Notes under the pieces: model-generated
Seen by the model: the letters and a program-made list of their open reading frames with translations, nothing else
Databases searched by the model: none
Told to the model about the DNA's origin: nothing
Translations under genes and position numbers: made by a program
Source: Deltaproteobacteria bacterium
GTDB lineage: Bacteria; Desulfobacterota; Desulfobacteria; Desulfobacterales; B30-G6
Length of the DNA stretch: 44,276 nucleotides
Direction of reading: 5' to 3'
Assembly (NCBI GenBank): GCA_024639645.1
Contig: JAHEIB010000002.1
Coordinates: 1-44,276 of the forward strand
Shown here: piece after piece, positions 1,169 through 18,332 of the stretch
Numbering within the stretch: position 1 is the stretch's first letter
How the letters are laid out: each line of letters begins with the position of its first letter

Positions 1169-2383
1169 TTATCGCATCGCAATTTCAATGTGATACGATT
1201 TTCCAAGAACACGTTTAAGATACTCCAGCATGAGAACCGATCTGAGTTCATATGTGTCCATCTCTTCCACCTGTTCGTCCTTGAGCAGGTTGGCTACCCA
1301 TTTGGAAGACAATGATTTTTCATGGGCGTATTTTTCCCGAACCGATCTCAGATAGGTCCGATTAAGCTCTTGCAGCTCTCCCGTTTCCATGGCCTTGATT
1401 TTTGAATAAAAGTCTTCCATAACCGCAACGTCAGGAAGGGACGGATTCTCGACAATCGCTTTATAGGTCTGGCCAAACCGCTCCAACCCTTTGTAGATAT
1501 GGTGTTTCTTTACCATGTTGATTTTTTTCCAACCGGCGTCGAGCCACTTGAAAGCCCCGCATTTGATCCGTGTTACTTCCCCAGGCATCTCATAATAAAC
1601 AATAATGGAAAAGGAGTCATACATATACGAACTCACCCATCCCAACCCGGGTTTGTCGAGACCTTTTTTATCGGAAAAGAGATAGGTCCAGTCGCTATCA
1701 GCTCCCAGCACAACCCCTTTTTTACCGACAGTTGACACGTCAATCTGTTTACTAAGTGATATCAGAAGGTTATTTCCTCGATGCTTCATCAGAATCAGGG
1801 TTCGATCCAATTCATATCGGTAATAAGCCCCTGTATTTATATCCGGTGTGTTTTCAACGGTCTGCCGGCCTCTGACAATTACAGGGTCAGTGCTCTCTTC
1901 CAGATAATTCCATAATTGCGGCAGGTTTTGTTTTCCATCGCCAAATTCCGACCAGAAAGAAAGCCGCACGGACGATGGGTTCGTAATAAAGGAAGGGAGG
2001 GCTGAATTATAGGATAACTTCAGGACACGGGACAAGGCCCCGTCAAGGACAAATTCATGATACGCCGATGTCGCCTTGGATGTCCCATCAACATAATAAA
2101 GTCTGTTCTCCTCTTTTGGCGCAACAATAAAATCTAGAAACCCATCGATAAGCTCCGGATTAAACGTTGTTATTTCCTCGGAACCAGTTAATGCCAAAAG
2201 ATGTTCGAATGCGGGATTCAAAACCTCGGGGACTTTTTCTTCCATCAAGTCGTTATCTGGCCAGACTGCAGGTGGAAACCAGAAAACCGCAGCCAACAAG
2301 GGCAAGATAATCCATAGCCACTTCAGCCTATTGTCAGTTATCTTTTCAAATACGATTTTGTTGTCCATAAAAACCATCACCAT
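1169..2383 (-). CDS. hypothetical protein with an N-terminal membrane anchor
   Basis: A long uninterrupted ORF (404 aa) with one N-terminal hydrophobic helix (LKWLWIILPLLAAVFWF) followed by a soluble domain. I recognise no family motif. The start could be 2383, 2377 or 2368. Confidence 0.6.
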   Translation of the reverse strand: MVMVFMDNKIVFEKITDNRLKWLWIILPLLAAVFWFPPAVWPDNDLMEEKVPEVLNPAFEHLLALTGSEEITTFNPELIDGFLDFIVAPKEENRLYYVDGTSKATSAYHEFVLDGALSRVLKLSYNSALPSFITNPSSVRLSFWSEFGDGKQNLPQLWNYLEESTDPVIVRGRQTVENTPDINTGAYYRYELDRTLILMKHRGNNLLISLSKQIDVSTVGKKGVVLGADSDWTYLFSDKKGLDKPGLGWVSSYMYDSFSIIVYYEMPGEVTRIKCGAFKWLDAGWKKINMVKKHHIYKGLERFGQTYKAIVENPSLPDVAVMEDFYSKIKAMETGELQELNRTYLRSVREKYAHEKSLSSKWVANLLKDEQVEEMDTYELRSVLMLEYLKRVLGKSYHIEIAMR

Positions 2384-2594
2384 CCAGTAGAAAAAACGCC
2401 TCCCTTCAATGAGAAGCTCAATTATATAACGCTAAACTATAATTCGGGAACCACCAATGTCAATGGGTGAAGCTTTAAGCGATAAGCAATGAGCTGCTTA
2501 TCGCTAAATGCTTATCGCTTTCATGGATGGGTTTTTATAATATAGTGCTGCAGAAAATTCCGTTCGTGTTCAATAGTGGCGATTGCTTCTTTCT

Positions 2595-3758
2595 TTAAAA
2601 AATATAATTCGATATGATCTCTTTCATAATCTCGGTGGTACCGCCACCGATGGACAGGATCCGGTTGTCCCGAAACAATCTTTCCACCAGATAACCACGC
2701 ATGTATCCATAGCCACCGAAGATCTGGACTGCATCATAGGTAACCTTATCACTGACACTGCAGGCAAAGTTTTTTGCCATGCTGATCTCCTTGATCTGCT
2801 CATGCCCGGCGTCGATCTTGGCGGCAATACGGTATGTAAACTCACGGCTCGCTTCCACAAGCGTCGCCATATCCACCAGTTTGTGTCTTGTCACCTGGAA
2901 TCCCTTCAGTTTCTTCCCAAAAGCATCCCTTTCTCCGGCATAGGCAATTGCCGATTCTAGCGCCAGTTGGGCCGTCATGTTGGCCATGATTGATAGGGCC
3001 AGCCTTTCACCTTGAAAGTTTTCCATGATGGTATAAAAACCGGCATTTTCATCCCCCAGTCGATTATGTACGGGAACACGACAGTCATCAAAAAAAATCT
3101 GGGCCGTGTCTGATGCCCACCAGCCTGTTTTTTTATATTTTTCGGAAACGGAATACCCCGGCGTATCTGATTCGATGACCAGAAGACTGATGCCGTGGGC
3201 ACCGGTTTCTCCAGTGCGTACGGCACAGGTGATCTGATCTGCCCGGTATCCGCTGGTAATGAAAACTTTGCTACCATTGACCCGGTAAAAATCTTTTTCT
3301 CTGACGGCCGTTGTCTGCAGGCCGGCCACATCCGACCCTCCCCCCGGTTCTGTTATGGCCAGTGCCGCTATCTTTTCTCCCGACAAAACCGGTTTCACAA
3401 AACGTTGTTTTTGGGATTCGGTGCCGGCCGACAGGATCGGAGGGATGGCGATATTCAGACTGCCCAGACCTGCCACCAGACCGCCGGATCCTGAGCGCAT
3501 GAGTTCTTCAGACACGGCGATGTGGAAAAAAATGTCTCCTGGTATGCCGCCATATGCTTCAGGATATCCCGTTCCGAGGATACCAACTGCCGCGGCCTTT
3601 TGATAGAGCTCCCGTGGAAATTCCCCGGCTTCCTCCCAATCGTCTATGAAGGGAAGAATCTCCTTGTCCACAAATGCCTTCACCGACTTTCTCACCATGT
3701 CGTGGGCTTTTCCAAAATACTCCTGGCAGCTTGCTTTTGAACGGAATTCATATGACAT
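2595..3758 (-). CDS. acyl-CoA dehydrogenase
   Basis: 387 aa with ACAD hallmarks: ITEPGGGSDVAGL, the FITSG region and C-terminal QIFGGYGYMRGYLVERLFRDNRI..IGGGTTEI. Confidence 0.9.
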   Translation of the reverse strand: MSYEFRSKASCQEYFGKAHDMVRKSVKAFVDKEILPFIDDWEEAGEFPRELYQKAAAVGILGTGYPEAYGGIPGDIFFHIAVSEELMRSGSGGLVAGLGSLNIAIPPILSAGTESQKQRFVKPVLSGEKIAALAITEPGGGSDVAGLQTTAVREKDFYRVNGSKVFITSGYRADQITCAVRTGETGAHGISLLVIESDTPGYSVSEKYKKTGWWASDTAQIFFDDCRVPVHNRLGDENAGFYTIMENFQGERLALSIMANMTAQLALESAIAYAGERDAFGKKLKGFQVTRHKLVDMATLVEASREFTYRIAAKIDAGHEQIKEISMAKNFACSVSDKVTYDAVQIFGGYGYMRGYLVERLFRDNRILSIGGGTTEIMKEIISNYIF

Positions 3759-3766
3759 TATGCACC

Positions 3767-3790
3767 GTTTTAGGTTTTAGGTTTTAGGTT
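3767..3790. repeat. tandem 8-mer (ttttaggt x3) directly upstream of the ACAD start
   Basis: The plus strand reads gttttaggttttaggttttaggtt, which is AACCTAAA repeats on the gene strand. Related ACCTAA arrays occur at 11992..12017 and 42815..42840. Confidence 0.85.
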
Positions 3791-3792
3791 CT

Positions 3793-3842
3793 GCTATTCG
3801 CGACAATCAATGACGCGCGTAGCGCTAATGTCGCCCGCAGGG
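3793..3842. repeat. Family-D intergenic repeat, copy 1
   Basis: The reverse complement, ccctgcgggcgacattagcgctacgcgcgtcattgattgtcgcgaatagc, aligns by eye with 42754..42807 and more loosely with the reverse complement of 27658..27702. Confidence 0.7.
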
Positions 3843-3862
3843 CTAATGCCCGCTTTGAAAAA

Positions 3863-5614
3863 TCACAGTATCACCCTGGGAGCATCTATGATCCTGGCTC
3901 TCAGGTATTCTCCCAATGTTTTGGCCTGAGGGTCACTCCTCAGGGATGCAGCCACTCCGTCACCCAGCAAGCCTTTGATATAAAAATTCAAAGCCAGGAG
4001 ATTGGGCAGTTCATATCGCTCGATCTCAAAACCCACCAGATCTTTGAGAAGTATTTTCAAACGTTCCACCGACAAAAATTCCCGTAAAAATGCATATGCA
4101 TCCGGCGTCTTTGCCCAGACACCCAGATTGGCATTTCCGCCTTTGTCACCAGAGCGTGTGGCAAACAATGCCCCAAAAGGTACTGAAACGGTTTCGCCCT
4201 GCGGAACCGGTGGCATCGGTCTTGGTTGAAGCGACGCGTCATCCAGGGATTCTCCCTGAGTCAAGGCTTTCACCACAATCTCTTGATCGTCGACAAAAAC
4301 ATGCTGTTGGATGTGTTTGTTCGACACCAGTGCCGGCCAGTGCATAATGGCTGGAACACCTTTGGTGGGGGGGGCTGTGGCTGTAAAACCGGGGATGTTT
4401 GCCAGAGCCAACTCCACAAGTTTTGAAGAAAACAGGGCCACCTTTTTAGGATCCGGATCCATGACCGATAGTCGCAGATGTGCAAAGGCCTCTTCATTGG
4501 TTGATGGATTTTCTTTTTCCGAGCGAATGAGCTGTACATCCACCACCGAAAACAGTTTTTTTCCACCCAGGCTGTCAAAGAGGGCCTCTGTGACGATCTG
4601 TGCCTTTTTGTCGATGTCGAGTCCTGTCAAAATGATGGTCATGCTGTTACGGTAGCCCCCCAGGTTGTTGATGCAGACCTTGGTGGTTTGGGTGGGGGGT
4701 TCCCCTTTGACGCCTTGAATCCGAACCCGGTGGGTATCTTCCTGAAAAATATCGATGGTGTCGAACCGGGCGGCAACGTCCGGCGTCAGATACCTGGGTT
4801 CCCGAACTTCATACAGCAGTTGAGCGGTGACCGTTCCAACAGAGACAAGCCCGCCGGTGTTGGGATGCTTGGTAATAATTGAAGATCCGTCCTTTTCAAG
4901 CTCTGCAATGGGAAAGCCTACATTTTTAAAAGAAGGTACCTCATCAATAAAAGCGTAATTGCCGCCGGTTGCTTGGGCGCTGCACTCGATCACATGACCG
5001 GCCACCGCCGCGCCTGCCAGGGCATCCCAGTCTGATTTTTTCCATTTGAATTTCCAGGCCGCGGGCCCCATGACCAGTGCTGCATCGGCAATACGTCCCC
5101 CAACGACGATGTCTGCGTCATGATTGAGCGCCTCCACAATCCCCCAGCAACCCAGATACGCATTGGCTGAAATCGTCTGCGCCTTGGCATCTTTCAAGGG
5201 AATCCCCTTGTCCATGTGGGTGAAAGGTTCGCCTTTGTCTTGAAGATCCTGCAGTCTCTGCATCAGGTTGTCCCCCTCGATATAGGCAATTTTGGGGTGA
5301 AGCCCCAACGTTTCCGCTAGCTTCTCGAGTTCTTGGGCAAGTGACCCTGGGTTGAGACCCCCTGCATTGGCAACAACCTTTATACGCCTGTCAAGGCATT
5401 CTCCCATGACAACTTCCATCTGCTTTAAAAATGTCGTTACATAACCGGCATTGGGGTCCTTGAACTGCTTGCGAAGCAGAATGGCCATGGTCAGTTCGGC
5501 CAGGTAATCACCGGTCAAAAAATGGATGGGGCCGCCCTGAACCATCTCCTGTGCCGCAGAAAATCTGTCACCAAAAAAACCGCTGCAGTTGGCAATGATT
5601 AATTTCTCGTTCAT
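3863..5614 (-). CDS. AtuA-like acyclic-terpene-utilisation family protein (DUF1446 with a DUF4387-like C-terminal domain)
   Basis: Taken from ORF 3863..5677, with the start moved to ATG 5614 (MNEKLIIANCSGFFGDR), which is preceded by AAGGAAAG. The N-terminus IANCSGFFGDR...FLTGDYLAELTM is characteristic of DUF1446. The C-terminal roughly 100 aa (SGDKGGNANLGVW...LNFYIKGLLG) resemble DUF4387. Confidence 0.8.
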   Translation of the reverse strand: MNEKLIIANCSGFFGDRFSAAQEMVQGGPIHFLTGDYLAELTMAILLRKQFKDPNAGYVTTFLKQMEVVMGECLDRRIKVVANAGGLNPGSLAQELEKLAETLGLHPKIAYIEGDNLMQRLQDLQDKGEPFTHMDKGIPLKDAKAQTISANAYLGCWGIVEALNHDADIVVGGRIADAALVMGPAAWKFKWKKSDWDALAGAAVAGHVIECSAQATGGNYAFIDEVPSFKNVGFPIAELEKDGSSIITKHPNTGGLVSVGTVTAQLLYEVREPRYLTPDVAARFDTIDIFQEDTHRVRIQGVKGEPPTQTTKVCINNLGGYRNSMTIILTGLDIDKKAQIVTEALFDSLGGKKLFSVVDVQLIRSEKENPSTNEEAFAHLRLSVMDPDPKKVALFSSKLVELALANIPGFTATAPPTKGVPAIMHWPALVSNKHIQQHVFVDDQEIVVKALTQGESLDDASLQPRPMPPVPQGETVSVPFGALFATRSGDKGGNANLGVWAKTPDAYAFLREFLSVERLKILLKDLVGFEIERYELPNLLALNFYIKGLLGDGVAASLRSDPQAKTLGEYLRARIIDAPRVIL

Positions 5615-5810
5615 AAGTATCTTTCCTTTATATAGTCGGCCATAGCTATCTATAAGCAATAGGCTGTCATTAGGCAATCTGACGATTGCCGACTCTTAGC
5701 TGTTTGCTCTTAGCCAGTAGCTATTCACCGGCCAACAGCTAAGAGCCAAAAGCGTAGACGTTTACCCTCCAACCCTTTTATCCCCCTCGGACCCTGGAAC
5801 CCTGATCCTT

Positions 5811-6581
5811 TTATTTCCCCTTAAACTTAGGTTTGCGCTTCTCTATAAATGCCGTGATTCCCTCCACAGCATCCTGGGTTGACACCACATCTACCAGTTT
5901 TTCGCTCAGGTAATCGACGGCCTCGTTCAGGGGCATATCCGACATGTGATGAAAAGCCTCTTTGCCGAGTCTCAACCCAATGGGACTCTTTGCAATCAAC
6001 GCCCCCAAAATCCGGTCAACGCTTTCATCCAGCTTTTCAAAAGGAACGACCCGGGTGATAAGACCCATTTCAAGGGCTTCCTGCGCCGTGAGCTTTTCCC
6101 CCAGAAGCACCATTTCCATACCTTTCTTTTTCATCACATTCCTGAAAATCAAGGCACCGATCATCATAGGGAACAAGCCCACATTGACCTCGGGGGTCCC
6201 GAATTTAGCCGTCTCCCTTGCCACCACAATGTCGCAGGCCAGCATGAACCCCATACCCCCTGCCAGGCAGTACCCATTGACCCTTGCAACCGTCGGTTTG
6301 GGGTAAGCCACCATGCGTTTCAAAAGATCTGCATAGCGGCTGAAAGAGTCCTTGCCCTCCTCAGTGGCAGCGCCCCCAAGGTCAGCCCCGGAGCAAAAAG
6401 ATTTGTCACCTGCGCCGGTCACCATGATCGCCCGGACATGATCATCGGTTTCCGCTCGATCCAGGCAATCCATGAACTGCGCAATTACCTGGGGTGTCAG
6501 GGAGTTTCGTTGCTTTTCACGATTGATGGTCAGCATTGCAACATGATTTTCAACTTGATACAGAAGTGGATTTTCCGTCAT
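5811..6581 (-). CDS. enoyl-CoA hydratase/isomerase (crotonase) family protein
   Basis: Taken from ORF 5811..6650, with the start moved to ATG 6581 (MTENPLLYQVENHVAMLTINR). It has the oxyanion-hole motif GAGDKSFCSGADL and the C-terminal EGITAFIEKRKPKFKG. Confidence 0.9.
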   Translation of the reverse strand: MTENPLLYQVENHVAMLTINREKQRNSLTPQVIAQFMDCLDRAETDDHVRAIMVTGAGDKSFCSGADLGGAATEEGKDSFSRYADLLKRMVAYPKPTVARVNGYCLAGGMGFMLACDIVVARETAKFGTPEVNVGLFPMMIGALIFRNVMKKKGMEMVLLGEKLTAQEALEMGLITRVVPFEKLDESVDRILGALIAKSPIGLRLGKEAFHHMSDMPLNEAVDYLSEKLVDVVSTQDAVEGITAFIEKRKPKFKGK

Positions 6582-7048
6582 AATTGATTCCCCATGGTTT
6601 AGTAATTTATTTAAAGCCATAAGCTTTAAGCCGTATGCAGTAAGCCGCATATAGCTTGAATGTCAATTTTTAGGTTTCACCCTTGTTCGAGCGAGATGGA
6701 TGATCCAATGGCGATTTGCGCTGTTTGAGCCAATTAGGGCTCTTTATATCAGTGCATGTTACGAGTCTGACCGCCATGACCTCGCCAAGACAGGCAGTCT
6801 CATCCATACCTGCCGTGTTTCAAAAGTCAAGCCCCAATAAATTCGTGTTGGGAATTTATCAGACACGTCCTTGTCTCTTTCATGGAGGAGAAATTACCGG
6901 ACCTGGGGTTATCCACAAGCACCTGCGAAAAACCAATTCCAAATCCTTTGTATTTGCTATCCCATTGAGAGTGTGCTTAACTTTTACCTAAGATGAGCGT
7001 TTCAAATTTTAAGAATATAAGATAAAAATTATTCCAAAGGATTCAATC

Positions 7049-8299
7049 ATGAAAGATGTTGTTATTGCATCAGCATGCAGGACGGCCATCGGCGCATTCG
7101 GCGGAACCTTGCGGGACACGATCGCCTCGGAAATTGCCAGGGTTACCATGCAGGAAGCCATAAATCGGGCCGGTATCGATCCTGCAACCATCGATGATGT
7201 GCGATATGGCTGCTGCCTGGAGCCGGTAGACACATTGAATGTCGCCCGTACAGCTGCCCTGCTTGCAGGTATACCCGACACTGTTCCCGCCGTAACCATC
7301 AACCGTGTATGTATTTCGAGTATGGAAGCGACCATCTCCGGAATGGCCATGATACAGGCCGGCATGGCAGATATTATTCTTTCCGGGGGTGTGGAGCACA
7401 TGTCCGGGGTCCCATATGTCGTGCCGGCTGCACGTTGGGGATGCCGGCTGCAGGATCAGGTCTTTGTGGATGCACTGATTCGAAGTCTCCATTGTGGCTC
7501 CCATGTGATACCCCATCCTGAAGATGGCCCGGTAAATGCGGAAGCCCCCCCCTTGAGCTATTTTAAGGGAAAACCTTATATCATGGGCCATACAGCGGAG
7601 TTTGTTGCCCAACAGTATGGTATCGCCCGGGAAGAAATGGATGAAGTGGCCCTCAGGAGCCATAATAACGTAGAGCGGGCCACCCGGGACGGCTCTTACA
7701 AGGAAGAAATCGTACCCATGGAAATTCCCCAACGAAAAAAAGAACCCGTTCTATTTGACAAGGACGAACACTTTAGACCCGGGATGACCATGGAACAGCT
7801 CCAGAAGCTGCCACCGGCCTTTATCCCCAAAACAGGCAAGGTTACGGCTGGAAACGCGAGCGGTATCAATGATGGGTCGGCAGGAATGGTGATTATGTCT
7901 GCTGAAAAAGCCGCGGCCCTCAATATAAGACCCCTGGCAAAAATCAAGGCCATTGGAAAGGGAGGTTGTCATCCCTCGGTAATGGGCATGTCACCTGTTC
8001 CGGCCGTTCAGAACCTGATGACACGCAGTGGCTTGAAAATTGAGGATTTCGAGCTGGTTGAAGTAAACGAGGCATTTGCCGCCCAGTATATTGGCTGTGA
8101 AAGAGAGCTGGGATTGAACCGTGAAATTACGAATGTCAACGGGTCGGGAATCGGTCTTGGTCACCCGGTGGGTGCCACTGGCGCCCGTATCATCGTTTCC
8201 CTGATCCATGCCCTGAAACAGCGTGGAAAAACACTGGGGCTGGCCACCCTCTGCGGCGGCGGCGGTGTGTCTATGGCATGTGCGATCGAGATGGTGTAA
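7049..8299 (+). CDS. acetyl-CoA C-acyltransferase (thiolase)
   Basis: 416 aa with the nucleophile Cys context INRVCISSMEA and C-terminal NVNGSGIGLGHPVGATGARI and LCGGGG motifs. It lies divergent from the crotonase operon. Confidence 0.92.
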   Translation: MKDVVIASACRTAIGAFGGTLRDTIASEIARVTMQEAINRAGIDPATIDDVRYGCCLEPVDTLNVARTAALLAGIPDTVPAVTINRVCISSMEATISGMAMIQAGMADIILSGGVEHMSGVPYVVPAARWGCRLQDQVFVDALIRSLHCGSHVIPHPEDGPVNAEAPPLSYFKGKPYIMGHTAEFVAQQYGIAREEMDEVALRSHNNVERATRDGSYKEEIVPMEIPQRKKEPVLFDKDEHFRPGMTMEQLQKLPPAFIPKTGKVTAGNASGINDGSAGMVIMSAEKAAALNIRPLAKIKAIGKGGCHPSVMGMSPVPAVQNLMTRSGLKIEDFELVEVNEAFAAQYIGCERELGLNREITNVNGSGIGLGHPVGATGARIIVSLIHALKQRGKTLGLATLCGGGGVSMACAIEMV

Positions 8300-8812
8300 A
8301 GAGAGGGTTGCAGGGCGTGAGGGGGATACGAGGGTTGGAGGGTGGCTGACAGCTTTAAGCGGACAGCGGCATCCCGGCGTCCCAGCAGAAAAGAAGGTTT
8401 CTCGGGTTTTTTTGCTTGATGAAACGGAAACAAGTTGAATGCTCTATACCGACGGCTGTAAGCAACACAATAAACCCAAAGAGTTCAATGAACGCGACAA
8501 CCATGATTGCCCTGCCTGATCTATTGTTAATTTTATTAAATACATTTTAATTGTTTCATTGTATTTTCTATCTTTTATTGACATTTTCATCAAATTAGAT
8601 CAAGGTTGCCTTAATTGTTCTACAAACCGCGTGATCGGCACGCGGTTTTGAACCTGAACGTGCGGAGACGTGCCGTCTCCTTTGTCTTTCCACCATTGGG
8701 GGGAAATCCAAGCCACCCGTTTCACGGGTGGTAGTTGACTTAGGATTTGGAACCATCTATTCCCGTTTTAGGCGACAGGGTTGCGTCCCTATAAATCGTA
8801 AACGATTTTATT

Positions 8813-9256
8813 ATGAAAATAGATACAATCACCATCGATATCATCAAACACCTTCAGGACGGTCGGAAATCATTGAAGAAAATCGCGGATGATTTATCCA
8901 TTTCAGAAAACACCGTCCGATCAAGGGTCAACCAGCTAAAAAATGAAGACATTTTATCCATATCCGGCCTGGTGCGTCCAGAAGCTATCCCCGGCCATTG
9001 CTCGGTAATGGTGGGTGTCAAACTTTCAACCATGCATCTGGTTAAAAAGGGTGAAGAATTCAGCCAGCTGAAAGGTGTTGTTTCCGTTAGCGTTGTAACA
9101 GGTCGTTTTGACTTGATCTTGATTGTATTGCTCAAAGATAACTATGGCCTGCTTGAATTTTATACCGAGCAGGTTGCGCGGATAAAAGATGTCCAATCGG
9201 TTGAAACATTTGTGGTTTATAAAAGCTATGGCTTGAAGCTTCCCTATATTCTATAG
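8813..9256 (+). CDS. Lrp/AsnC-family transcriptional regulator
   Basis: 147 aa with an N-terminal HTH (DIIKHLQDGRKSLKKIADDLSISENTVRSRVNQL) and a C-terminal RAM/AsnC_trans_reg-like domain. It is the first gene of the gcv operon. Confidence 0.85.
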   Translation: MKIDTITIDIIKHLQDGRKSLKKIADDLSISENTVRSRVNQLKNEDILSISGLVRPEAIPGHCSVMVGVKLSTMHLVKKGEEFSQLKGVVSVSVVTGRFDLILIVLLKDNYGLLEFYTEQVARIKDVQSVETFVVYKSYGLKLPYIL

Positions 9257-9286
9257 CCGGACTATTTCATGAAAAGGAGCTGATTC

Positions 9287-11935
9287 ATGAACAATCTTTT
9301 CAAAACAATCTTGCATGATCGCCATGTCGACCTGGGTGCCCAGATGGTTGAATTCGGGGGCTGGGTTATGCCCATACAGTATCAACAGGGAATCGTCCGG
9401 GAACACCTTGCCACAAGACGGTATGCCGGTCTTTTTGATGTATCGCATATGGGCCGATTCACCTTCCAGGGGCAGGATGCCCTGACGTTTTTACAGCATG
9501 TCCTTTCCAACAATGCCTCTGGGCTCGAGGAAGGAGAAAGCCAGTATACCTTAATTCCAAATGACAGCGGCGGCGCCATCGACGATGCCTATCTTTACCG
9601 CTTTTATGCCGATGAATACCTGCTGGTGGTCAATGCCGGCAACCGTCTCAAAGATTGGGATCACTTTCAGGCCTGCCTGCCTGATTTCAAAAATGTCACC
9701 ATGGCGGACAAAACTGAAGACATCTCCATGCTGAGCCTGCAGGGACCGACATCCAAAGATATTCTCCAAAATATAATAGATACCGGTGCGCTTCCGGAAC
9801 CCATGCGAAACCATCTCAGCATCACCACCATTCAAAACAAAAAAGTGCTTATCGCACGTACAGGATACACCGGAGAGCCCCTCTGTTTTGAGCTCTTTAT
9901 CGACAGCACCGACACACCCCCTATCTGGGACCTGTTGATCGATCAGGGAGCCCATCCTGTTGGACTGGGTGCGCGGGATACCCTCAGACTTGAAGCAGGT
10001 CTTCCCTTGTACGGACACGAACTGGGAATGGATCCGGACAACAAGGAAATTCCGATCTACGCGTCACCCCTATCACGATTTGCAGTAAGTCTGTCCCCCT
10101 TGAAAAAAGATTTTATCGGTCGAAAAGCCCTTGAAAAACAATTTCAAGCCTTTAAAAAAATTGTCGATCAAGACTATTCTGCCATACATGATCTCCCGCG
10201 CTGCATTATGCCGGTGGCATTGAAAAAGAAGGGCGTGGCGCGCGCCGGATACAACGTTTTTCAGGAGAATCGTCATGTCGGATATGTCACCAGCGGCACC
10301 ATGATTCCAAGATGGAAAATCGAGGGGGAGGGCATCTTCTCAAAATTGACCGAGAGCCACGATCTCAGGGGAATCTGTCTGGCACTGTTAGACAGTACCC
10401 TGATGGAGGGTGATGACATCGACATCGAGATCCGGGGAAAACAGGCGCCGGCAGTTGTCGTTCCCTTTCACATGCGGAGCGAGGCGCCGCCTTTTGCCAG
10501 GTCCATCCCCTGGGACAAGATCGGACAGGAAAAAAAATCACCAGGAGAAGATGATATTTCCGGCAACGTTCAATCTCTGTTAAAAAAATCGATTCGAAAT
10601 ACAAAATGGCGCCAAGAGGAATGCATCAATCTCATCCCTTCCGAACAAACCCAGTCCGAACTCGTACGCTTGCTCTCCATCATGGACCCCTGTGGACGCT
10701 ATGCCGAGCACAAACAGGTGGGTGCCTTCAGTGAAGCCGAGGTTTTTTATTACCAGGGAACCGATTTTATAGCCGAAGTCGAGGCAAAACTCGAAACAGA
10801 GTTAAAAAAGTTCTTTGGGTGTCAGCAGGTGGAAACCCGTCTGGTTTCAGGGCAGATGGCCAACATGGCTCTGTTCAGCGCCCTGGTTGACTATATCAAT
10901 CGGAGCGACCGGAAAAATGAACAGCGACGGCTCAGGAAGGTGATGAACAACCATATCATCAAGGGCGGCCATTTGAGCGCACAGCCAATGGGGGCATTGA
11001 GAGACTTTGTGGCCCGGGACCCTTTGTCTGAGAAACCGGCGGTGATCAATTTTCCGGTCCTGCCTGAAAACCCCTATAAAATTGACATCGATGCCTGTGA
11101 GACTCTCATTCAAAAACACGCGCCGGAGCTGTTTATCTTTGGTAAAAGCATGGTTCTCCACAGGGAGCCCCTTGCAGAAGTGCGCCGGATAATCGATGGT
11201 CTGGGTATGGATTCGATTATCATGTACGACATGGCACATGTTCTGGGTCTGGTGGGCCCCCACTTTCAAGAACCTTTTAAAGAAGGTGCGGATTTTATAA
11301 CGGGGTCTACCCATAAAACCTATTTCGGAACACAGCGGGGTATCATCGGCACAGATATCAAGGATGAAGACCCCCGGTTCGAACTATGGGAAGCCGTCAA
11401 ACGCCGGTCATTTCCTGGAAGTGTCAGCAATCATCACCTGGGAACACTTTTGGGGCTTCTGATGGCGGCCTATGAGATGAACCATTTCAAAGACAGTTAC
11501 CCTAAAAAAGTGATCGACAACGCCAGTGTCTTTGCCAAAGCGCTGAACGACTGCGGGTTAAGCGTGGCCGGCGATCCGGAAATCTCTTTTACAGAAACCC
11601 ACCAAGTTATACTCAATGTGGGCTATGCAAAGGGACCTGAGATTGCCAGGAAACTGGAAGAGAACAATCTCATCGTCAACTACCAGGCAGCTCCGGTGGA
11701 AGAAGGCTTTACGGCATCCGGATCCCTTCGCATGGGTGTACAGGAAATGACGCGTTTTGGTATGGAGGCTGCGGATTTCGAAGAACTGGCACAATTGTTC
11801 AAGGATGTTCTGGTGGATAACCGAACCGTCAAGGAAGCCGTTATAGCATTTCGCAAACGTTTTCTTGAGATGAAGTTCTGTTTTACGGCGGATCAGATTG
11901 GAGACAATATTCAGAAGTTGCACGAGCTGCTATAA
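9287..11935 (+). CDS. gcvT: bifunctional fusion: aminomethyltransferase (glycine-cleavage T protein) N-terminal half joined to a serine hydroxymethyltransferase-like C-terminal half
   Basis: 882 aa with an AGGAG RBS. Residues 1 to about 405 carry GcvT hallmarks (GGWVMPIQY, LFDVSHMGRF, GARDTLRLEAGLPLYGHEL). Residues about 440-882 carry SHMT hallmarks (WRQEECINLIPSEQ compared with RQ..LELIASEN, the PLP-lysine motif GSTHKTYFGTQRG, and SVSNHHLG). There is no in-frame stop between the halves. Confidence 0.85.
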   Translation: MNNLFKTILHDRHVDLGAQMVEFGGWVMPIQYQQGIVREHLATRRYAGLFDVSHMGRFTFQGQDALTFLQHVLSNNASGLEEGESQYTLIPNDSGGAIDDAYLYRFYADEYLLVVNAGNRLKDWDHFQACLPDFKNVTMADKTEDISMLSLQGPTSKDILQNIIDTGALPEPMRNHLSITTIQNKKVLIARTGYTGEPLCFELFIDSTDTPPIWDLLIDQGAHPVGLGARDTLRLEAGLPLYGHELGMDPDNKEIPIYASPLSRFAVSLSPLKKDFIGRKALEKQFQAFKKIVDQDYSAIHDLPRCIMPVALKKKGVARAGYNVFQENRHVGYVTSGTMIPRWKIEGEGIFSKLTESHDLRGICLALLDSTLMEGDDIDIEIRGKQAPAVVVPFHMRSEAPPFARSIPWDKIGQEKKSPGEDDISGNVQSLLKKSIRNTKWRQEECINLIPSEQTQSELVRLLSIMDPCGRYAEHKQVGAFSEAEVFYYQGTDFIAEVEAKLETELKKFFGCQQVETRLVSGQMANMALFSALVDYINRSDRKNEQRRLRKVMNNHIIKGGHLSAQPMGALRDFVARDPLSEKPAVINFPVLPENPYKIDIDACETLIQKHAPELFIFGKSMVLHREPLAEVRRIIDGLGMDSIIMYDMAHVLGLVGPHFQEPFKEGADFITGSTHKTYFGTQRGIIGTDIKDEDPRFELWEAVKRRSFPGSVSNHHLGTLLGLLMAAYEMNHFKDSYPKKVIDNASVFAKALNDCGLSVAGDPEISFTETHQVILNVGYAKGPEIARKLEENNLIVNYQAAPVEEGFTASGSLRMGVQEMTRFGMEAADFEELAQLFKDVLVDNRTVKEAVIAFRKRFLEMKFCFTADQIGDNIQKLHELL

Positions 11936-12038
11936 GCGATAAGCCATAAGCTGTAAGCGGCTTATTGCTTATAGCTTACAGCTCATTACTTAAAACCTAA
12001 CACCTAACACCTAAAACAACTTTTCACAGGAGACTGCC

Positions 12039-12437
12039 ATGAAAGAATTGAGTGAACTTAATTTTCCTGACGATGTCATGTATTCCGATGATCACGAATG
12101 GACAAAAATGGAAAACGACGAAGCCGTCATCGGCATAAGCGATTATGCGCAGGATCAGCTGGGAGACATCGTTTTTGTCGAACTGCCCCAGGTTGGCGAA
12201 ACATTTGAAAAAGGCGCCGAGTTCGGTACGGTGGAATCCGTCAAGGCCGTATCCGAGCTATTCCTGCCTGTAGGTGGCGAAATTATTGCTGTCAATGACG
12301 CCCTGGAAGACACGCCGGAACTGGTCAACAACGAACCCTACACCGGAGGGTGGATGCTCCGGATCAAGCTCAGCGATAAATCCGAATTGGATCAGTTGAT
12401 GAATAAAAGCGCTTATCTCGAATCATTGAAAGGGTGA
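12039..12437 (+). CDS. gcvH: glycine cleavage system H protein
   Basis: 132 aa with the lipoyl-lysine motif GTVESVKAVSEL and a typical N-terminus (YSDDHEW) and C-terminus. Confidence 0.93.
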   Translation: MKELSELNFPDDVMYSDDHEWTKMENDEAVIGISDYAQDQLGDIVFVELPQVGETFEKGAEFGTVESVKAVSELFLPVGGEIIAVNDALEDTPELVNNEPYTGGWMLRIKLSDKSELDQLMNKSAYLESLKG

Positions 12438-12441
12438 TAGC

Positions 12442-13776
12442 ATGAGATATTTACCACACACGCAAGAAGATATCGCCGATATGCTGAAGACCATCGGTGT
12501 TGATAGCCTGAATGACCTGTTTACAACCATTCCGGAAGATTGCCGCAGAAAAACGGACCTCAAACTGCCCAAGGCCAAGACCGAGTGGGAACTGAACCAC
12601 CATATGAGCGGACTGGCTGCCCAGATGGCGGTCTGCCCGGATTACACGGTGTTCATCGGTGCCGGCAGTTATGATCATTATATACCGGAAGTGGTCAAAC
12701 AGCTTCTGAGCCGCTCCGAGTTTTACACGGCCTATACCCCTTATCAACCGGAAATGAGCCAGGGCACCCTTCAAGCCATTTATGAATACCAGACGCTTAC
12801 CACACGTCTTTTGGGATTGGACGTGGCCAATGCCTCCATGTATGACGGGGCTTCGTCTCTGGCGGAAGCGCTCCTGATGTCCATCCGTATTACCCGGCGG
12901 AAAAAAGTGGCTATCTCCCGTCTCATCCATCCCCTGTATCGACAGGTGGTTCGAACATACTTCGCTCCCACCGGCTTCGAAGTAGTGGAACTCCCCGTTT
13001 CAGATTCCGGCCAAACAGATATGACCGGCCTGGAAGATATGGAGACGTTTGCCTGCGTAGCCGTTCAATCACCCAACTATTTTGGTTGTATTGAAAACCT
13101 GGCCGCCTTTGAGGAAAAAATCCACTCGGACAGCAAAACACTCTTCATCGTCTCCTTCACAGAACCCCTTGCCTATGGTGTATTAAAAAACCCGGGCAGC
13201 CTCGGTGCAGACATTGCCTGCGGTGAGGGACAGAGTCTGGGCATCCCCAGATCTTTCGGCGGCCCCGGTCTTGGCATGTTTGCAGCCAAAAAGGGCTATA
13301 TGAGAAATATGCCCGGCAGGCTCGTCGGCCAGACATTGGATATTGAAGGCAAGCGAGGTTTTGTCTTGACCCTCTCCACCAGGGAGCAACATATTCGCCG
13401 GGAAAAAGCTACGTCGAACATCTGTTCTAATCAAGGCTTGTGCGCCACCGCCGCGGCCATGTATATGGCAACGCTGGGGGGCACCGGCATTCGAAAGCTG
13501 GCCGCATTAAATCACGACAAAGCCGCTTATCTGCAAGGTCTACTTAAAAATGCCGGGTTTGAAATCCCATTTGATACACCCGTATTCAACGAGTTTGTGG
13601 TCAAATTTCCAAAAGACTTTAAGAAAACCTATACAAACCTGCTATCCAAAAAAATAGTGCCTGGACTATCACTGACACCGGATTATCCCGAGTTTCCAGA
13701 TCACTATCTATTGTGTGCCACAGAAACCATGGACAAGGCGGATATGGACCTGTTGGTCAAGGAGGTGACATCATGA
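12442..13776 (+). CDS. gcvPA: glycine dehydrogenase (aminomethyl-transferring) subunit 1
   Basis: 444 aa with the N-terminus MRYLPHT..D...ML and the motif YTPYQPEMSQGTLQAIYEYQT. It starts 4 nt after gcvH. Confidence 0.93.
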   Translation: MRYLPHTQEDIADMLKTIGVDSLNDLFTTIPEDCRRKTDLKLPKAKTEWELNHHMSGLAAQMAVCPDYTVFIGAGSYDHYIPEVVKQLLSRSEFYTAYTPYQPEMSQGTLQAIYEYQTLTTRLLGLDVANASMYDGASSLAEALLMSIRITRRKKVAISRLIHPLYRQVVRTYFAPTGFEVVELPVSDSGQTDMTGLEDMETFACVAVQSPNYFGCIENLAAFEEKIHSDSKTLFIVSFTEPLAYGVLKNPGSLGADIACGEGQSLGIPRSFGGPGLGMFAAKKGYMRNMPGRLVGQTLDIEGKRGFVLTLSTREQHIRREKATSNICSNQGLCATAAAMYMATLGGTGIRKLAALNHDKAAYLQGLLKNAGFEIPFDTPVFNEFVVKFPKDFKKTYTNLLSKKIVPGLSLTPDYPEFPDHYLLCATETMDKADMDLLVKEVTS

Positions 13777-15227
13777 AGGAAGGCGTCGGAACCACGGGTC
13801 TGATACTCAATGAGCCCTTTTTATGGGAAAAAGGCAAAAAAGGACGAATGGGCTTCTCTTTGCCCAACAACGATGTTCCGTCATCCCCTCTGGTTGCGGA
13901 GCTGCTCGGAGAAGGACCTGATTTTCCAGATCTGAGCGAAGTCGATGTGGTGAGACATTACACCCGTCTTTCCACCTGGAACTTCGGGGTGGACAGCGGC
14001 ATGTACCCCCTGGGATCCTGCACCATGAAGTACAATCCCAAAACCAATGAACGCCAGGCATCGCTCCCGGGTCTGGCACAGGCCCATCCACTGTTACCGA
14101 CCGAATTGGCGCAGGGTGCGCTCAAAATCATGTTTGATCTTCAGGAGCATCTGGCCGAAATAACCGGACTGCCGGCCGTCTCACTACAGCCTGCCGCTGG
14201 TGCCCAGGGTGAACTTACCGGCATGCTTCTGTTTTACGCTTTTCACATGATGAACAAAGAAAGACGAACCAAAATCCTCATACCGGACACAGCCCATGGT
14301 ACCAACCCTGCGAGTGCCGCCCTGTGTGGCTTCCGATCGGTTCCCGTTGCATCCAATGCTCAGGGAGTTCTTGCACCGGATGATGTGGAGGCCCTCATGG
14401 ATGAGGACACGGCCGGCATCATGGTCACGAATCCCAACACACTGGGTCTCTTTGAAGAACATATCAAACAGATATCTGAAATCGTGCATACCAAAGGCGG
14501 TCTTGTATACGCAGATGGCGCCAACATGAACGCTGTAATGGGTATGGTGAACATGGCCGACTTGGGTGTGGATGTCCTGCACCTCAATCTTCACAAAACA
14601 TTTTCAACCCCCCATGGCGGCGGTGGACCCGGCAGTGGTCCGGTTTGCGTCACTAAAAAACTCGAACCCTTTTTGCCGGTACCCAGGGTGATGCATGTTA
14701 AGAACCGTTATGAACTCTCTTATGATTTCCCGGAATCCATTGGCAAGGTTCACGCATTTTATGGAAATTTCGGAATCCAAATTCGTGCCTATTCCTATAT
14801 TCTCTCTATGGGCGACCAGTTGAAAACAGCAAGTCAGCTGGCGGTGCTGAACGCCAATTATTTGAAAGAAAGCCTACGGGATATTTTTCACCTGCCCTAT
14901 GACAAACCTTGTATGCATGAGTGCGTCTTCACGGACAAACATCAACAAGCATTCAAGGTGAGCACACTGGACATTGCCAAGCGACTGATAGATTATGGGT
15001 TTCATCCCCCCACCATATACTTCCCTCTCGTGGTTCAGGGTGCGTTGATGATGGAGCCAACGGAAACAGAATCCAAGGAGAATCTGGATGATTTTATCGA
15101 AGCCCTGAGACAGATTGTTCAAGAGGCCAAGGATAATCCGGAGCTGCTGTTGCAGGCCCCCATCAAAACCAAGGTACGGCGGCTGGACGAAACCATGGCC
15201 GCACGAAAACCCTGTCTGGCGGGTTAA
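13773..15227 (+). CDS. gcvPB: glycine dehydrogenase (aminomethyl-transferring) subunit 2
   Basis: Taken from ORF 13713..15227, with the start moved to ATG 13773 (AAGGAGG RBS; ATGA overlap with the gcvPA stop). It has the PLP-lysine motif LNLHKTFSTPHGGGGPG. Confidence 0.93.
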   Translation: MKEGVGTTGLILNEPFLWEKGKKGRMGFSLPNNDVPSSPLVAELLGEGPDFPDLSEVDVVRHYTRLSTWNFGVDSGMYPLGSCTMKYNPKTNERQASLPGLAQAHPLLPTELAQGALKIMFDLQEHLAEITGLPAVSLQPAAGAQGELTGMLLFYAFHMMNKERRTKILIPDTAHGTNPASAALCGFRSVPVASNAQGVLAPDDVEALMDEDTAGIMVTNPNTLGLFEEHIKQISEIVHTKGGLVYADGANMNAVMGMVNMADLGVDVLHLNLHKTFSTPHGGGGPGSGPVCVTKKLEPFLPVPRVMHVKNRYELSYDFPESIGKVHAFYGNFGIQIRAYSYILSMGDQLKTASQLAVLNANYLKESLRDIFHLPYDKPCMHECVFTDKHQQAFKVSTLDIAKRLIDYGFHPPTIYFPLVVQGALMMEPTETESKENLDDFIEALRQIVQEAKDNPELLLQAPIKTKVRRLDETMAARKPCLAG

Positions 15228-15301
15228 CCCGGATATTTTTGTCATATGATGATAAGCAGAAAACCACCCCTTGTGTTTTATGACAGATTCGGGTCAACCG
15301 G

Positions 15302-16015
15302 ATGGTAAAGCATCAGCCTCCCACCCGGACCTTGGCCTGCTGGTGCCTGGATCTCAAGACAATGGCTTATCAGGAGGCCTGGGAATTCCAACAAGCCGTG
15401 GTCAGGGCTAAAATTGAAAAGAATTTTTCTCAGGATGTCATTCTGTTCGTGGAACACGCTCCGGTTTTTACACTGGGCCGCAGGGGGGGGCTTGAAAACC
15501 TGACCGTTTCCGAAGCGTTTTTGGAAGCATCAGGCATCCAGGTGATACAGGTGGAAAGAGGGGGGGACATTACCTACCATGGTCCCGGCCAGCTGGTGGT
15601 CTACCCTGTCCTGGATCTGGACCGTCAACGACTCGGTATCACTGAACTGGTTTTCATGCTCGAAGAAATCATGATCCGCGTTTCCAAAACCCTCGGCGTC
15701 CATGCGGTGCGAAATCCCAGGAATCGTGGTGTCTGGGTTGGTAAAAAAAAGATTGGCAGCATCGGACTTGCTGTCCGAAAGGGATTCAGCTTTCATGGAA
15801 TGGCGCTGAACGTCAACCTTTCTATGACGCCTTTCGAATGGATTCACCCCTGTGGTCTTGCCAATGTCTCCATGACGTCCCTCGAAAAAGAATTATCTGA
15901 AAGACCTTCCATGCAGGCGGTACAGAAACTGACCAAACAACATTTAAAAGATGTGTTCGGGCGGTCTTTAGAGGCGATTACGCGAGAGCAATTGGATAGG
16001 TTGATAAAGTTGTAA
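15302..16015 (+). CDS. lipB: lipoyl(octanoyl) transferase
   Basis: 237 aa with the motifs RGGDITYHGPGQLVVYP, GKKKIGSIGLAV and HPCG (catalytic Cys). Confidence 0.88.
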   Translation: MVKHQPPTRTLACWCLDLKTMAYQEAWEFQQAVVRAKIEKNFSQDVILFVEHAPVFTLGRRGGLENLTVSEAFLEASGIQVIQVERGGDITYHGPGQLVVYPVLDLDRQRLGITELVFMLEEIMIRVSKTLGVHAVRNPRNRGVWVGKKKIGSIGLAVRKGFSFHGMALNVNLSMTPFEWIHPCGLANVSMTSLEKELSERPSMQAVQKLTKQHLKDVFGRSLEAITREQLDRLIKL

Positions 16016-16194
16016 GCTGCAAGCGATAAGCCGTAAGCTGTTTTCCGTTTACAGCCTTTCCTCGAGCCGTGTCCTGTTATTGGGTTCGTTGGGTTCATTG
16101 CGTTTTTTGGGTTATTATGTTGTCTTCAGCCCTTAGCCCTAAAACCGCTCATGGCTAATCGCTTATGGCTTAAAGCTTAAAGCTCGGAGAAACC

Positions 16195-17061
16195 ATGTCA
16201 CACAAAGTGCTGAAAAAGCCTGCTTGGCTAAAACGGCGGATGACCGCGGGATCGGATTATGAAAAAGTTCGTGCGCTCATCGAAAACTGCCATCTGCACA
16301 CGGTTTGCCAGGAAGCCCATTGCCCCAATATCTGGGAGTGCTTTTCCAGAGAAACGGCCACCTTTCTCATTCTGGGGGACCGTTGTACCCGAAATTGCAG
16401 GTTTTGTGCCGTTGCCCAAGGCCCCCAAGAGCCGCCGGATCCAGAAGAGCCTGACCATGTTGCTTTGGCCGTTCAAGAACTAAAACTGGCCTACGTGGTC
16501 ATCACCTCCGTGACCCGCGATGATTTGCCAGATGGTGGTGCAGGCCATTTTGCAAGGACTATCCAGGCGGTAAGAAACAAATGCCCAGGGGTTGGTATCG
16601 AGGTACTGATTCCAGACTTTAAGGGAAAACGACACGCATGGCAGACCGTCCTTGACGCACGACCTAATGTTTTGAATCACAACATGGAAACCGTCCAGCG
16701 TCTCTACCCGCTGGTTAGACCAGAGGCAGATTACGGTCAATCTTTAGATCTTATCAGGTATGCCGCAAACAACGGGCATGGTATTTCCACAAAATCGGGT
16801 CTGATGCTGGGATTGGGAGAAAGCAATCAAGAAATCGTGACAGCATTTTCAGACCTCATCCGAGCTGGATGTCATATCTTAACCCTGGGTCAATACCTGC
16901 AACCCACCAAAGAACATCTCCCCGTAGATCGATTTGTGCCCCCAGATGCGTTTGATGAACTCAAAAAAATTGCCCTAGAAATGGGTTTCAGCGATGTAGC
17001 CGCAGACCCGTTTGTGCGCAGCTCCTATCGGGCCAAGGAATTATTTAAGGGTAGGTTTTAA
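16195..17061 (+). CDS. lipA: lipoyl synthase (radical SAM)
   Basis: 288 aa with auxiliary-cluster cysteines (CQEAHCPNIWEC), the radical-SAM motif CTRNCRFC and the C-terminal RSSYRA. Confidence 0.93.
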   Translation: MSHKVLKKPAWLKRRMTAGSDYEKVRALIENCHLHTVCQEAHCPNIWECFSRETATFLILGDRCTRNCRFCAVAQGPQEPPDPEEPDHVALAVQELKLAYVVITSVTRDDLPDGGAGHFARTIQAVRNKCPGVGIEVLIPDFKGKRHAWQTVLDARPNVLNHNMETVQRLYPLVRPEADYGQSLDLIRYAANNGHGISTKSGLMLGLGESNQEIVTAFSDLIRAGCHILTLGQYLQPTKEHLPVDRFVPPDAFDELKKIALEMGFSDVAADPFVRSSYRAKELFKGRF

Positions 17062-17513
17062 CTCAACTTTCGAGATTTAGAGCTGTTGTCATAAATATGT
17101 TCCGTTTGACTTCTGGCTGGCGCTTCGGCGGGTGACGGCAAACAGCCGATCGCCTGTTTGAAGCAAATTTGCGATCGTTTAAAAGGCCATGGGGTTGGAT
17201 TCGTTCTATTGTAATCAAACACTGTTAACCAGACAATCGTATCTTAATCTTTTGGCACGGGTGTTCCTTACGAACGCTTATTTGCAAGTTCGAGCGGTTG
17301 TTTGACCTGATTTGCCGAAGCAGTTTCGGATCGTTATTCTGGCAAATGCTATAGATAACGAAAAATAAATAATCCCCCGTCGCTTTGCAAACTCGCCATT
17401 GGGTCACCCATTTCGCTCAATTTATGCTAAAACCCGAAAGTTGAGCTTTAAGCTGTCAGACAAGAAGATTTTTTGAAGAGAAAAACCCAGTATCGCACGT
17501 TCTCATTCGTTTT

Positions 17514-18332
17514 TCATTTGATGTCGGGTTTTCGATTCTTGTAGGCAGGGGGCCGGTTTTCAAAATTGGCCATTACCGTCTCGATCTGGTTGGCTTGACC
17601 GATTATCTTCTTTTGAAAATGAGCTTCAAGGTCGAGACCATCGACCGAGCTCCCGTGCCAGGCTTTTTCCAAAAGCTGTTTTCCCGCAGTGATGGCATCC
17701 GGTGACTTGCCGGCAATCTCCTTTGCCATGTCAGCCGCCGCCTCGAAAGGGTTCTCGCAGATCCTGGTTACCAGTCCCAGACTGGCTGCCTCTTCGGCTC
17801 CCACTACCCTGCCCGTAAAAGTCAGCTCCTTGGCCACATCCAAACGTACGAGATCCCTCAGGGTCTGGGTGCCCGACATGTCCGGAACAAGCCCCCATTT
17901 GATCTCCATGACCGAAAACCGTGCATCCGTACCTGCCAGGCGTATGTCAGCCGCCAAAGCCAGCTGGAAGCCACCCCCATAAGCAGCCCCATGTATGGCG
18001 GCGATTACCGGCACCGGCATCTGTTTCCACACATACCCCACCAACTGGGCATAATTTGCCGGGCTGCCTCCAGGCTTGTTGAAAAACTTCAATCCCTGCC
18101 CACTGGCAATATCACCCATGGCCATAAAGCTTTCAAAGTCCAGACCGGCACAAAACCCCTTTCCTTCCCCGGATAGAACAACCGCACGAACCGATGGATC
18201 CGCCGAGACGGACCTGCCCGCATCGACGATTTCCACGAACATTTCCGCGTTGAGTGCGTTGTATTTTTCGGCACGGTTCAATTTGACATAAGCAACATGG
18301 TTTTCAATTGAAATCGTTACGAGATCAGACAT
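17514..18332 (-). CDS. enoyl-CoA hydratase/isomerase family protein
   Basis: 272 aa with the crotonase motifs GEGKGFCAGLD and AAIHGAAYGGGFQLALAADIR. Confidence 0.88.
   Translation of the reverse strand: MSDLVTISIENHVAYVKLNRAEKYNALNAEMFVEIVDAGRSVSADPSVRAVVLSGEGKGFCAGLDFESFMAMGDIASGQGLKFFNKPGGSPANYAQLVGYVWKQMPVPVIAAIHGAAYGGGFQLALAADIRLAGTDARFSVMEIKWGLVPDMSGTQTLRDLVRLDVAKELTFTGRVVGAEEAASLGLVTRICENPFEAAADMAKEIAGKSPDAITAGKQLLEKAWHGSSVDGLDLEAHFQKKIIGQANQIETVMANFENRPPAYKNRKPDIK

Follow-up and report, generated by a model that had tools for sequence, protein, structure and literature searches.

A 44,276-nucleotide stretch of a Desulfobacterales genome (contig JAHEIB010000002.1 of assembly GCA_024639645.1, here C264), which we refer to as the window, carries a seven-gene cluster devoted to the glycine cleavage system. 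Close matches at the protein level bear the label Desulfobacterales. Its T protein, GcvT, is fused to a C-terminal domain related to serine hydroxymethyltransferase (SHMT). We consider it probable that the cluster encodes a conventional glycine cleavage system, dependent on an ordinary L protein, together with two lipoyl-building enzymes. The cluster as an operon would be routine, and operons of this kind without the L-protein gene are the norm. The notable part is the GcvT::SHMT fusion itself, which is found in hundreds of species from many phyla. This genome has no other T protein, and the same is true of 23 of 24 relatives checked. The data sources name it only ‘GcvT’ or ‘aminomethyltransferase’ and full-text literature searching found no paper describing it; the fusion is widespread and apparently uncharacterised.

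In the mechanism we favor, GcvPA/PB would decarboxylate glycine onto the lipoyl group of GcvH, and the T domain of the fusion would transfer the aminomethyl group to tetrahydrofolate (THF), yielding 5,10-methylene-THF and ammonia. Reduced GcvH would be reoxidised by the L protein, dihydrolipoyl dehydrogenase (Lpd), the gene for which is on a different contig (C106) and which would also serve 2-oxoglutarate dehydrogenase, an arrangement known from E. coli. The archaeal-type SHMT domain would most likely then join methylene-THF to a second glycine to form serine, for a net conversion of two glycine to serine, CO2, NH3 and 2[H]. Further conversion of serine to pyruvate would be possible, and the genome encodes a serine dehydratase. 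LipB and LipA would octanoylate and sulfurate GcvH, and probably the single E2 subunit of the genome as well. The description of the cluster as a dedicated module for glycine, serine and one-carbon (C1) interconversion, proposed in a first-pass annotation of this DNA, is a fair one; the cluster joins glycine cleavage or synthesis, a serine-forming step and H-protein lipoylation.

The fused T protein and its SHMT domain

The fusion (P0001) is organised as a T-protein domain (approximately residues 1-400), a linker (approximately 400-425) and an archaeal-type SHMT domain (approximately 425-882). The T half exceeds the cut-offs of both TIGR00528 gcvT (273.9 bits against 235.85) and NF001567 (322.7 bits against 300), and no second gcvT of the genome reaches the equivalog cut-off. 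It is likewise the top gcvT match in all 24 fusion-bearing genomes examined within the same order, and the only one above the cut-off in 23 of them. This argues that the fused product is the working T protein and not an extra paralogue.

The C-terminal half matches the Pfam SHMT family (PF00464) at 112.6 bits, for a cut-off of 27. The SHMT of Methanocaldococcus jannaschii is a stand-alone enzyme that uses tetrahydromethanopterin. It is also the best solved relative of the C-terminal half (4uqv/4bhd, 178.6 bits, compared with around 80 bits for bacterial SHMTs), and for this reason we term the domain archaeal-type. The match runs over nearly the full length and includes the archaeal-type motifs GSTHKT and FPG..SNHHL; unlike in M. 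jannaschii, however, the domain is joined to a folate-type T protein in a host that possesses formate-THF ligase, and it bears two extra insertions. Alignment with canonical SHMTs reveals that K677 (in STHK), D648 and H651 (in DMAH), H562 (in GGH) and SGQMAN at 521-526 are all kept, along with Y472 and E474 (in RYAEH), Y488/Y489 (in YY) and the carboxylate arginine R815. We take the roles of these residues (the lysine binding pyridoxal 5'-phosphate (PLP), acid-base catalysis, the carboxylate arginine) to be those of their counterparts in E. coli SHMT. None of the listed PLP-binding and catalytic residues varies among 28 full-length fused proteins sharing 64-95% identity with the 882-residue protein.

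It could nevertheless be argued that the domain is some other PLP-dependent aldolase or transferase, or that it serves mainly as a structural module dimerising the T protein. Its score against NCBIfam NF000586 is 236.1 bits, below the cut-off of 335, and its identity to the two canonical SHMTs of the genome is 23-24%. The domain also contains two family-specific insertions, reads GGHLSA where the canonical sequence is GGHLTH, and has threonine aldolase 7k34 as its third-best solved match. Furthermore, because the two canonical glyA/SHMT genes are encoded elsewhere in the genome (Pfam SHMT, 555 and 416 bits), the fused domain is not required for ordinary SHMT activity and may have another substrate or role. 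Against this, every PLP-binding and acid/base residue that can be placed is kept and invariant, the closest solved structure belongs to a characterised archaeal SHMT, and fusion to an enzyme that produces methylene-THF suits SHMT chemistry. We therefore regard a function other than SHMT as improbable.

An AlphaFold2 model of the whole fusion, built from the 28-sequence alignment, is too weak to judge the packing of the domains (mean pLDDT 66.4, pTM 0.49). A hand-over of folate between the two domains would be part of the proposed mechanism.

As a separate observation, a stand-alone archaeal-type SHMT paralogue, approximately 40% identical to the fused domain, is present in another genome beside GlcD-like and HdrD-like (CCG) genes (L047, G071:C12, 6940-11937).

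The L protein and the lipoylation genes

The lack of an L-protein gene in the window had been read as a possible sign of special biochemistry. The absence itself is correct, as a profile search of the genome's contigs returned no lipoamide-dehydrogenase-like match on the contig of the window. A conventional lpd is however present at C106:3350-4726 (TIGR01350, 544.8 bits; cut-off 408.8). It lies directly 3' of sucA-sucB, which encode 2-oxoglutarate dehydrogenase E1 and an E2 that has lipoyl, E3-binding and catalytic domains. Contig C125 carries another, weaker homologue (393 bits) beside a 2-oxoacid:ferredoxin oxidoreductase. All four parts of the glycine cleavage system, P, H, T and L, are hence present in the genome above their cut-offs.

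The same holds among relatives: an lpd above the cut-off is present in 23 of the 24 fusion-bearing genomes of the order, the exception being only 61% complete. We also examined a wider set, composed of the 80 best loci among at least 596 fusion-matching stretches of a one-genome-per-species collection. In 12 of these 80, the fused gene or the gcv genes that go with it have an lpd homologue as a neighbor, and nine of the ten such homologues tested pass the TIGR01350 equivalog cut-off. Several Bacillota loci have the order T::SHMT-H-PA-PB-...-lpd, while a Syntrophobacter locus reads lpd-H-PA-PB-lipB-T::SHMT. The clustering of lpd with fused gcv genes, together with its presence in relatives, indicates that the fused T protein works in ordinary L-containing systems. 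The absence of lpd from the cluster is therefore a matter of gene layout, not of biochemistry.

These findings bear directly on the suggestion that GcvH might be reoxidised or reduced by a non-canonical redox partner, for example a heterodisulfide-reductase-like iron-sulfur protein. Besides the absence of lpd from the window, this suggestion can draw on a second GcvH encoded on C101 among HdrD-like, GlcD-like, multihaem cytochrome and LplA-like genes, which indicates that unusual lipoyl-carrier partners may exist. The HdrD-like genes, however, go with that other GcvH and not with the GcvH of the gcv cluster, and with a conventional lpd in this genome, in nearly all of its relatives and within fused gcv clusters of several lineages, no such partner is needed. 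We consider the proposal very improbable.

The second GcvH (120 bits) belongs to a row of same-strand genes (L148, G000:C101:16000-29417, open reading frames within 1431-10845) that encode an HMGL-like protein, a GlcD-like FAD oxidase, GcvH, a multihaem cytochrome c, two HdrD-like CCG/4Fe-4S proteins and an LplA-like lipoate ligase. Such a row may represent a redox module that is built around a lipoyl carrier and has no part in glycine cleavage.

The cluster had also been called self-contained. This is an overstatement: no lipoyl synthase gene other than lipA was found in the genome, and lipB is the best of three genes with an LplA/LipB catalytic domain and the only LipB-type transferase found. 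As there is exactly one E2 in the genome, on C106, the two enzymes probably serve to lipoylate this E2 in addition to GcvH.

Direction of flux and regulation

The glycine riboswitch of Bacillus subtilis gcvT turns its genes on when glycine is in excess. In the fusion family, a glycine riboswitch (RF00504) is found directly 5' of the fused gene in six of nine operons in which that gene comes first, all from Bacillota and Pirellulales, and in four of these it is in tandem. The placing of glycine-activated riboswitches before fused operons, common outside Desulfobacterales, favors glycine consumption over glycine synthesis for this family, with two glycine giving serine, CO2 and NH3. The methylene-THF formed could be oxidised or assimilated via the Wood-Ljungdahl route, since the genome encodes the acetyl-CoA synthase CdhC/AcsB of that pathway (233 bits).

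The opposite direction had been proposed as a possibility for the cluster, whereby glycine would be made from CO2, NH3 and formate-derived methylene-THF, and the fused SHMT would add a second methylene-THF to form serine. The glycine cleavage system can run in either direction, and in Desulfovibrio desulfuricans it supports autotrophic growth (PMC7547702). The components of a reductive glycine module are present in the genome, namely a formate-THF ligase (FTHFS, 698 bits), the glycine cleavage system, SHMT and a homologue of serine dehydratase alpha (SDH_alpha, 192 bits). Furthermore, the gene for an unfused relative of the SHMT domain (P0263) comes directly 3' of an NAD-linked formate dehydrogenase, with a P-protein gene close by. 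Conversely, acetyl-CoA synthase makes the Wood-Ljungdahl route available, such that C1 assimilation does not require a reductive glycine route. The glycine reductase GrdA was not found, in a search that had no positive control and in a genome that is 83.6% complete (3.4 Mb in 302 contigs). The riboswitches that precede fused operons in other phyla also argue for glycine consumption, and the lack of lpd in the operon, which had motivated the proposal, is explained by the lpd on C106. We thus hold the synthase direction to be rather unlikely.

A related possibility is that the fusion is a bifunctional enzyme which passes methylene-THF between its two sites and runs reductively, converting two C1 units of the methyl branch to glycine and then to serine. 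If true, the cluster would constitute a natural one-operon glycine/serine synthase having its L protein in common with 2-oxoglutarate dehydrogenase. This too we judge unlikely.

A number of points weigh against the glycine-cleaving reading that we prefer. To the sub-threshold NF000586 score, the insertions and the dispensability of the fused domain for ordinary SHMT activity can be added the lack of any match to RF00504 within 8200-17600, even at E<=1, which means that the case for glycine as an inducer relies on evidence from distant lineages. The co-occurrence, in an anaerobe, of a reversible system with formate-THF ligase and a Wood-Ljungdahl enzyme counts in the same direction, as does the incompleteness of the genome.

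More broadly, an Rfam scan of 8200-17600 returned no family, its one match being a chance hit to a miRNA model (E 0.6), and RF00504 was absent from all nine related Desulfobacterota loci searched. The cluster begins with a gene of the Lrp/AsnC family, 30 nt 5' of the fused gene, the product of which scores below every NCBIfam equivalog cut-off. Orthologues with 64-81% identity stand beside gcv genes in six other genomes or loci (G112, G018, G036, L068, L111 and L128). The protein is the likely local regulator of the cluster, in the role that a glycine riboswitch has in other phyla.

Gene arrangement, distribution and known systems

The seven genes occupy the positions given in Table 1, where open reading frames together with Pfam and NCBIfam profiles confirm the functions first ascribed to them. 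All of the encoded proteins, with the exception of the regulator and the SHMT half of the fusion, exceed curated equivalog or subfamily cut-offs. The lipoyl-lysine of GcvH is K69, within a VESVK motif.

Table 1 Features of the glycine cleavage cluster (positions within the window)
Feature	Coordinates	Strand	Evidence
Lrp/AsnC-family transcriptional regulator, 147 aa	8813..9256	+	Pfam AsnC_trans_reg and HTH_AsnC-type
GcvT::SHMT fusion, 882 aa (P0001)	9287..11935	+	Pfam GCV_T 260 bits, GCV_T_C, SHMT 112.6 bits
Hairpin of about 20 bp, TAAGC-type repeats	11925..11983	+	Folding -31.7 kcal/mol, z -4.6, 0/200 shuffles as stable
gcvH, lipoyl-carrier H protein, 132 aa	12039..12437	+	TIGR00527 164.5 bits (cut-off 115.85)
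gcvPA, P-protein subunit 1, 444 aa	12442..13776	+	NF001696 608.9 bits (cut-off 364)
gcvPB, P-protein subunit 2, 484 aa from the ATG of the ATGA overlap	13773..15227	+	NF003346 701.4 bits (cut-off 441)
lipB, octanoyl (lipoyl) transferase, 237 aa	15302..16015	+	TIGR00214 163.9 bits (cut-off 83.55)
lipB-lipA spacer, TAAGC-repeat ends pairing over about 170 nt	16015..16185	+	Folding -61.4 kcal/mol, z -3.7, 0/200 shuffles as stable
lipA, radical-SAM lipoyl synthase, 288 aa	16195..17061	+	TIGR00510 375.4 bits (cut-off 310.25)

The genes had been described as tightly packed. This holds for gcvH and gcvPA, which are 4 nt apart, and for gcvPA and gcvPB, where the stop and start codons share an ATGA at 13773-13776 with AGGAGG 8 nt upstream. 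It does not hold for the remaining junctions, the gaps being 30 nt between the Lrp gene and the fused gene, 103 nt before gcvH, 74 nt between gcvPB and lipB, and 179 nt between lipB and lipA. Two of these gaps contain strong hairpins. The first, at the start of the 103-nt gap, takes in the fused gene's stop codon, and the second spans the spacer between lipB and lipA; neither is followed by a U tract. These TAAGC-repeat spacers look like REP-like intergenic elements and could affect mRNA stability or processing inside the cluster. All seven genes may be co-transcribed as a single operon; the gene 3' of lipA is convergent and hence any cluster transcript must stop after lipA.

Three short GC-rich hairpins lie at 8620-8735, within the 513-nt region 5' of the Lrp gene. 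They match no Rfam family and do not align with the corresponding upstream sequence of three relatives, and on the latter ground we dropped this leader as a candidate conserved RNA element. Further upstream (2595-8299) are genes for an acyl-CoA dehydrogenase, an AtuA-family protein (539 bits) with a ferredoxin-like tail and a crotonase, divergent from a thiolase gene. The thiolase-gcv neighborhood is kept in G001, G035, G112 and L068.

The fusion matches at least 596 stretches in the one-genome-per-species collection, distributed across many phyla, and within the order it occurs in 33 of the 99 genera sampled. The 80 best loci are labelled as Desulfobacterota, Planctomycetota, Acidobacteriota, Gammaproteobacteria, Chloroflexota, Actinomycetota, Bacillota, Spirochaetota and Armatimonadota. 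The fused proteins are 873-961 residues long and fall into approximately eleven separate clusters at 50% identity, with identities reaching down to 35%.

The order ech-thiolase-Lrp-T::SHMT-H-PA-PB-lipB-lipA is identical in a 94%-identical metagenome-assembled genome (L068). Three related genomes have T::SHMT-H-PA-PB-lipB-lipA and a fourth is alike without lipA, and in three other genomes of the order the gcvH and P-protein genes are divergent from the fused gene. At approximately 15 of the 24 loci examined, no gcv gene is near the fused gene and the neighbors sampled are unrelated; in five Desulfobacterales genomes in which it is isolated from gcv genes, no common function was evident among its neighbors. 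In the wider set of 80 loci, gcvH/PA/PB are adjacent in approximately 32, lipB in six, lipA in seven and the Lrp gene in three. The gene set is thus in wide use, the seven-gene layout being a lineage-specific form of packaging.

Several neighborhoods merit description in their own right. On contig C42 of G018, the fused gene is 5' of the Lrp gene and is divergently preceded by an lpd (12121-13536, 509 bits). Between the Lrp gene and gcvH of this locus is a second, divergent GcvT-like gene of 425 residues (L054, 6506-7783), which scores 163 bits against TIGR00528, below the cut-off. The unfused SHMT-like relative P0263 (sample ERZ25072999; 485 residues, 49% identity) overlaps the end of its formate dehydrogenase gene pair and is followed by genes for an epimerase, an aminotransferase, a PALP enzyme, an NAD kinase and a P-protein fragment. 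The neighborhoods of two unfused T-like relatives, P0259 and P0260, were uninformative, as their contigs are short.

In E. coli, gcvTHP is regulated with the involvement of Lrp and shares the lpd of the pdh and suc clusters. The present cluster is alike in having T, H and P genes on one strand, an L protein encoded outside and common to 2-oxoacid dehydrogenases, and a link to the Lrp family. It differs in having a P protein of two subunits, PA and PB (like Bacillus and Thermus), an SHMT domain at the C-terminus of T, appended lipB and lipA genes, and an Lrp-type gene within the cluster itself. The riboswitch-controlled gcvT-gcvPA-gcvPB operons of the B. subtilis type (RF00504) comprise the same enzyme set, and in Bacillota and Pirellulales the fused T gene itself follows RF00504; unlike these operons, the window and the nine Desulfobacterota loci lack the riboswitch, for which a protein regulator appears to substitute. 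The reductive glycine pathway of D. desulfuricans G11 (PMC7547702) likewise belongs to a sulfate-reducer lineage and involves a glycine cleavage system, SHMT, formate-THF ligase and serine deaminase. That organism, however, has separate GcvT and SHMT together with glycine reductase, whereas here the two are fused, GrdA was not found in the search described above and acetyl-CoA synthase is present.

To the fusion family the window adds a Desulfobacterales variant, in which an Lrp-type regulator appears instead of a glycine riboswitch. If the two domains do pass methylene-THF between them, the GcvT::SHMT fusion would offer a natural precedent for the coupling of the glycine cleavage system to SHMT, of relevance to the engineering of the reductive glycine pathway and to photorespiration.

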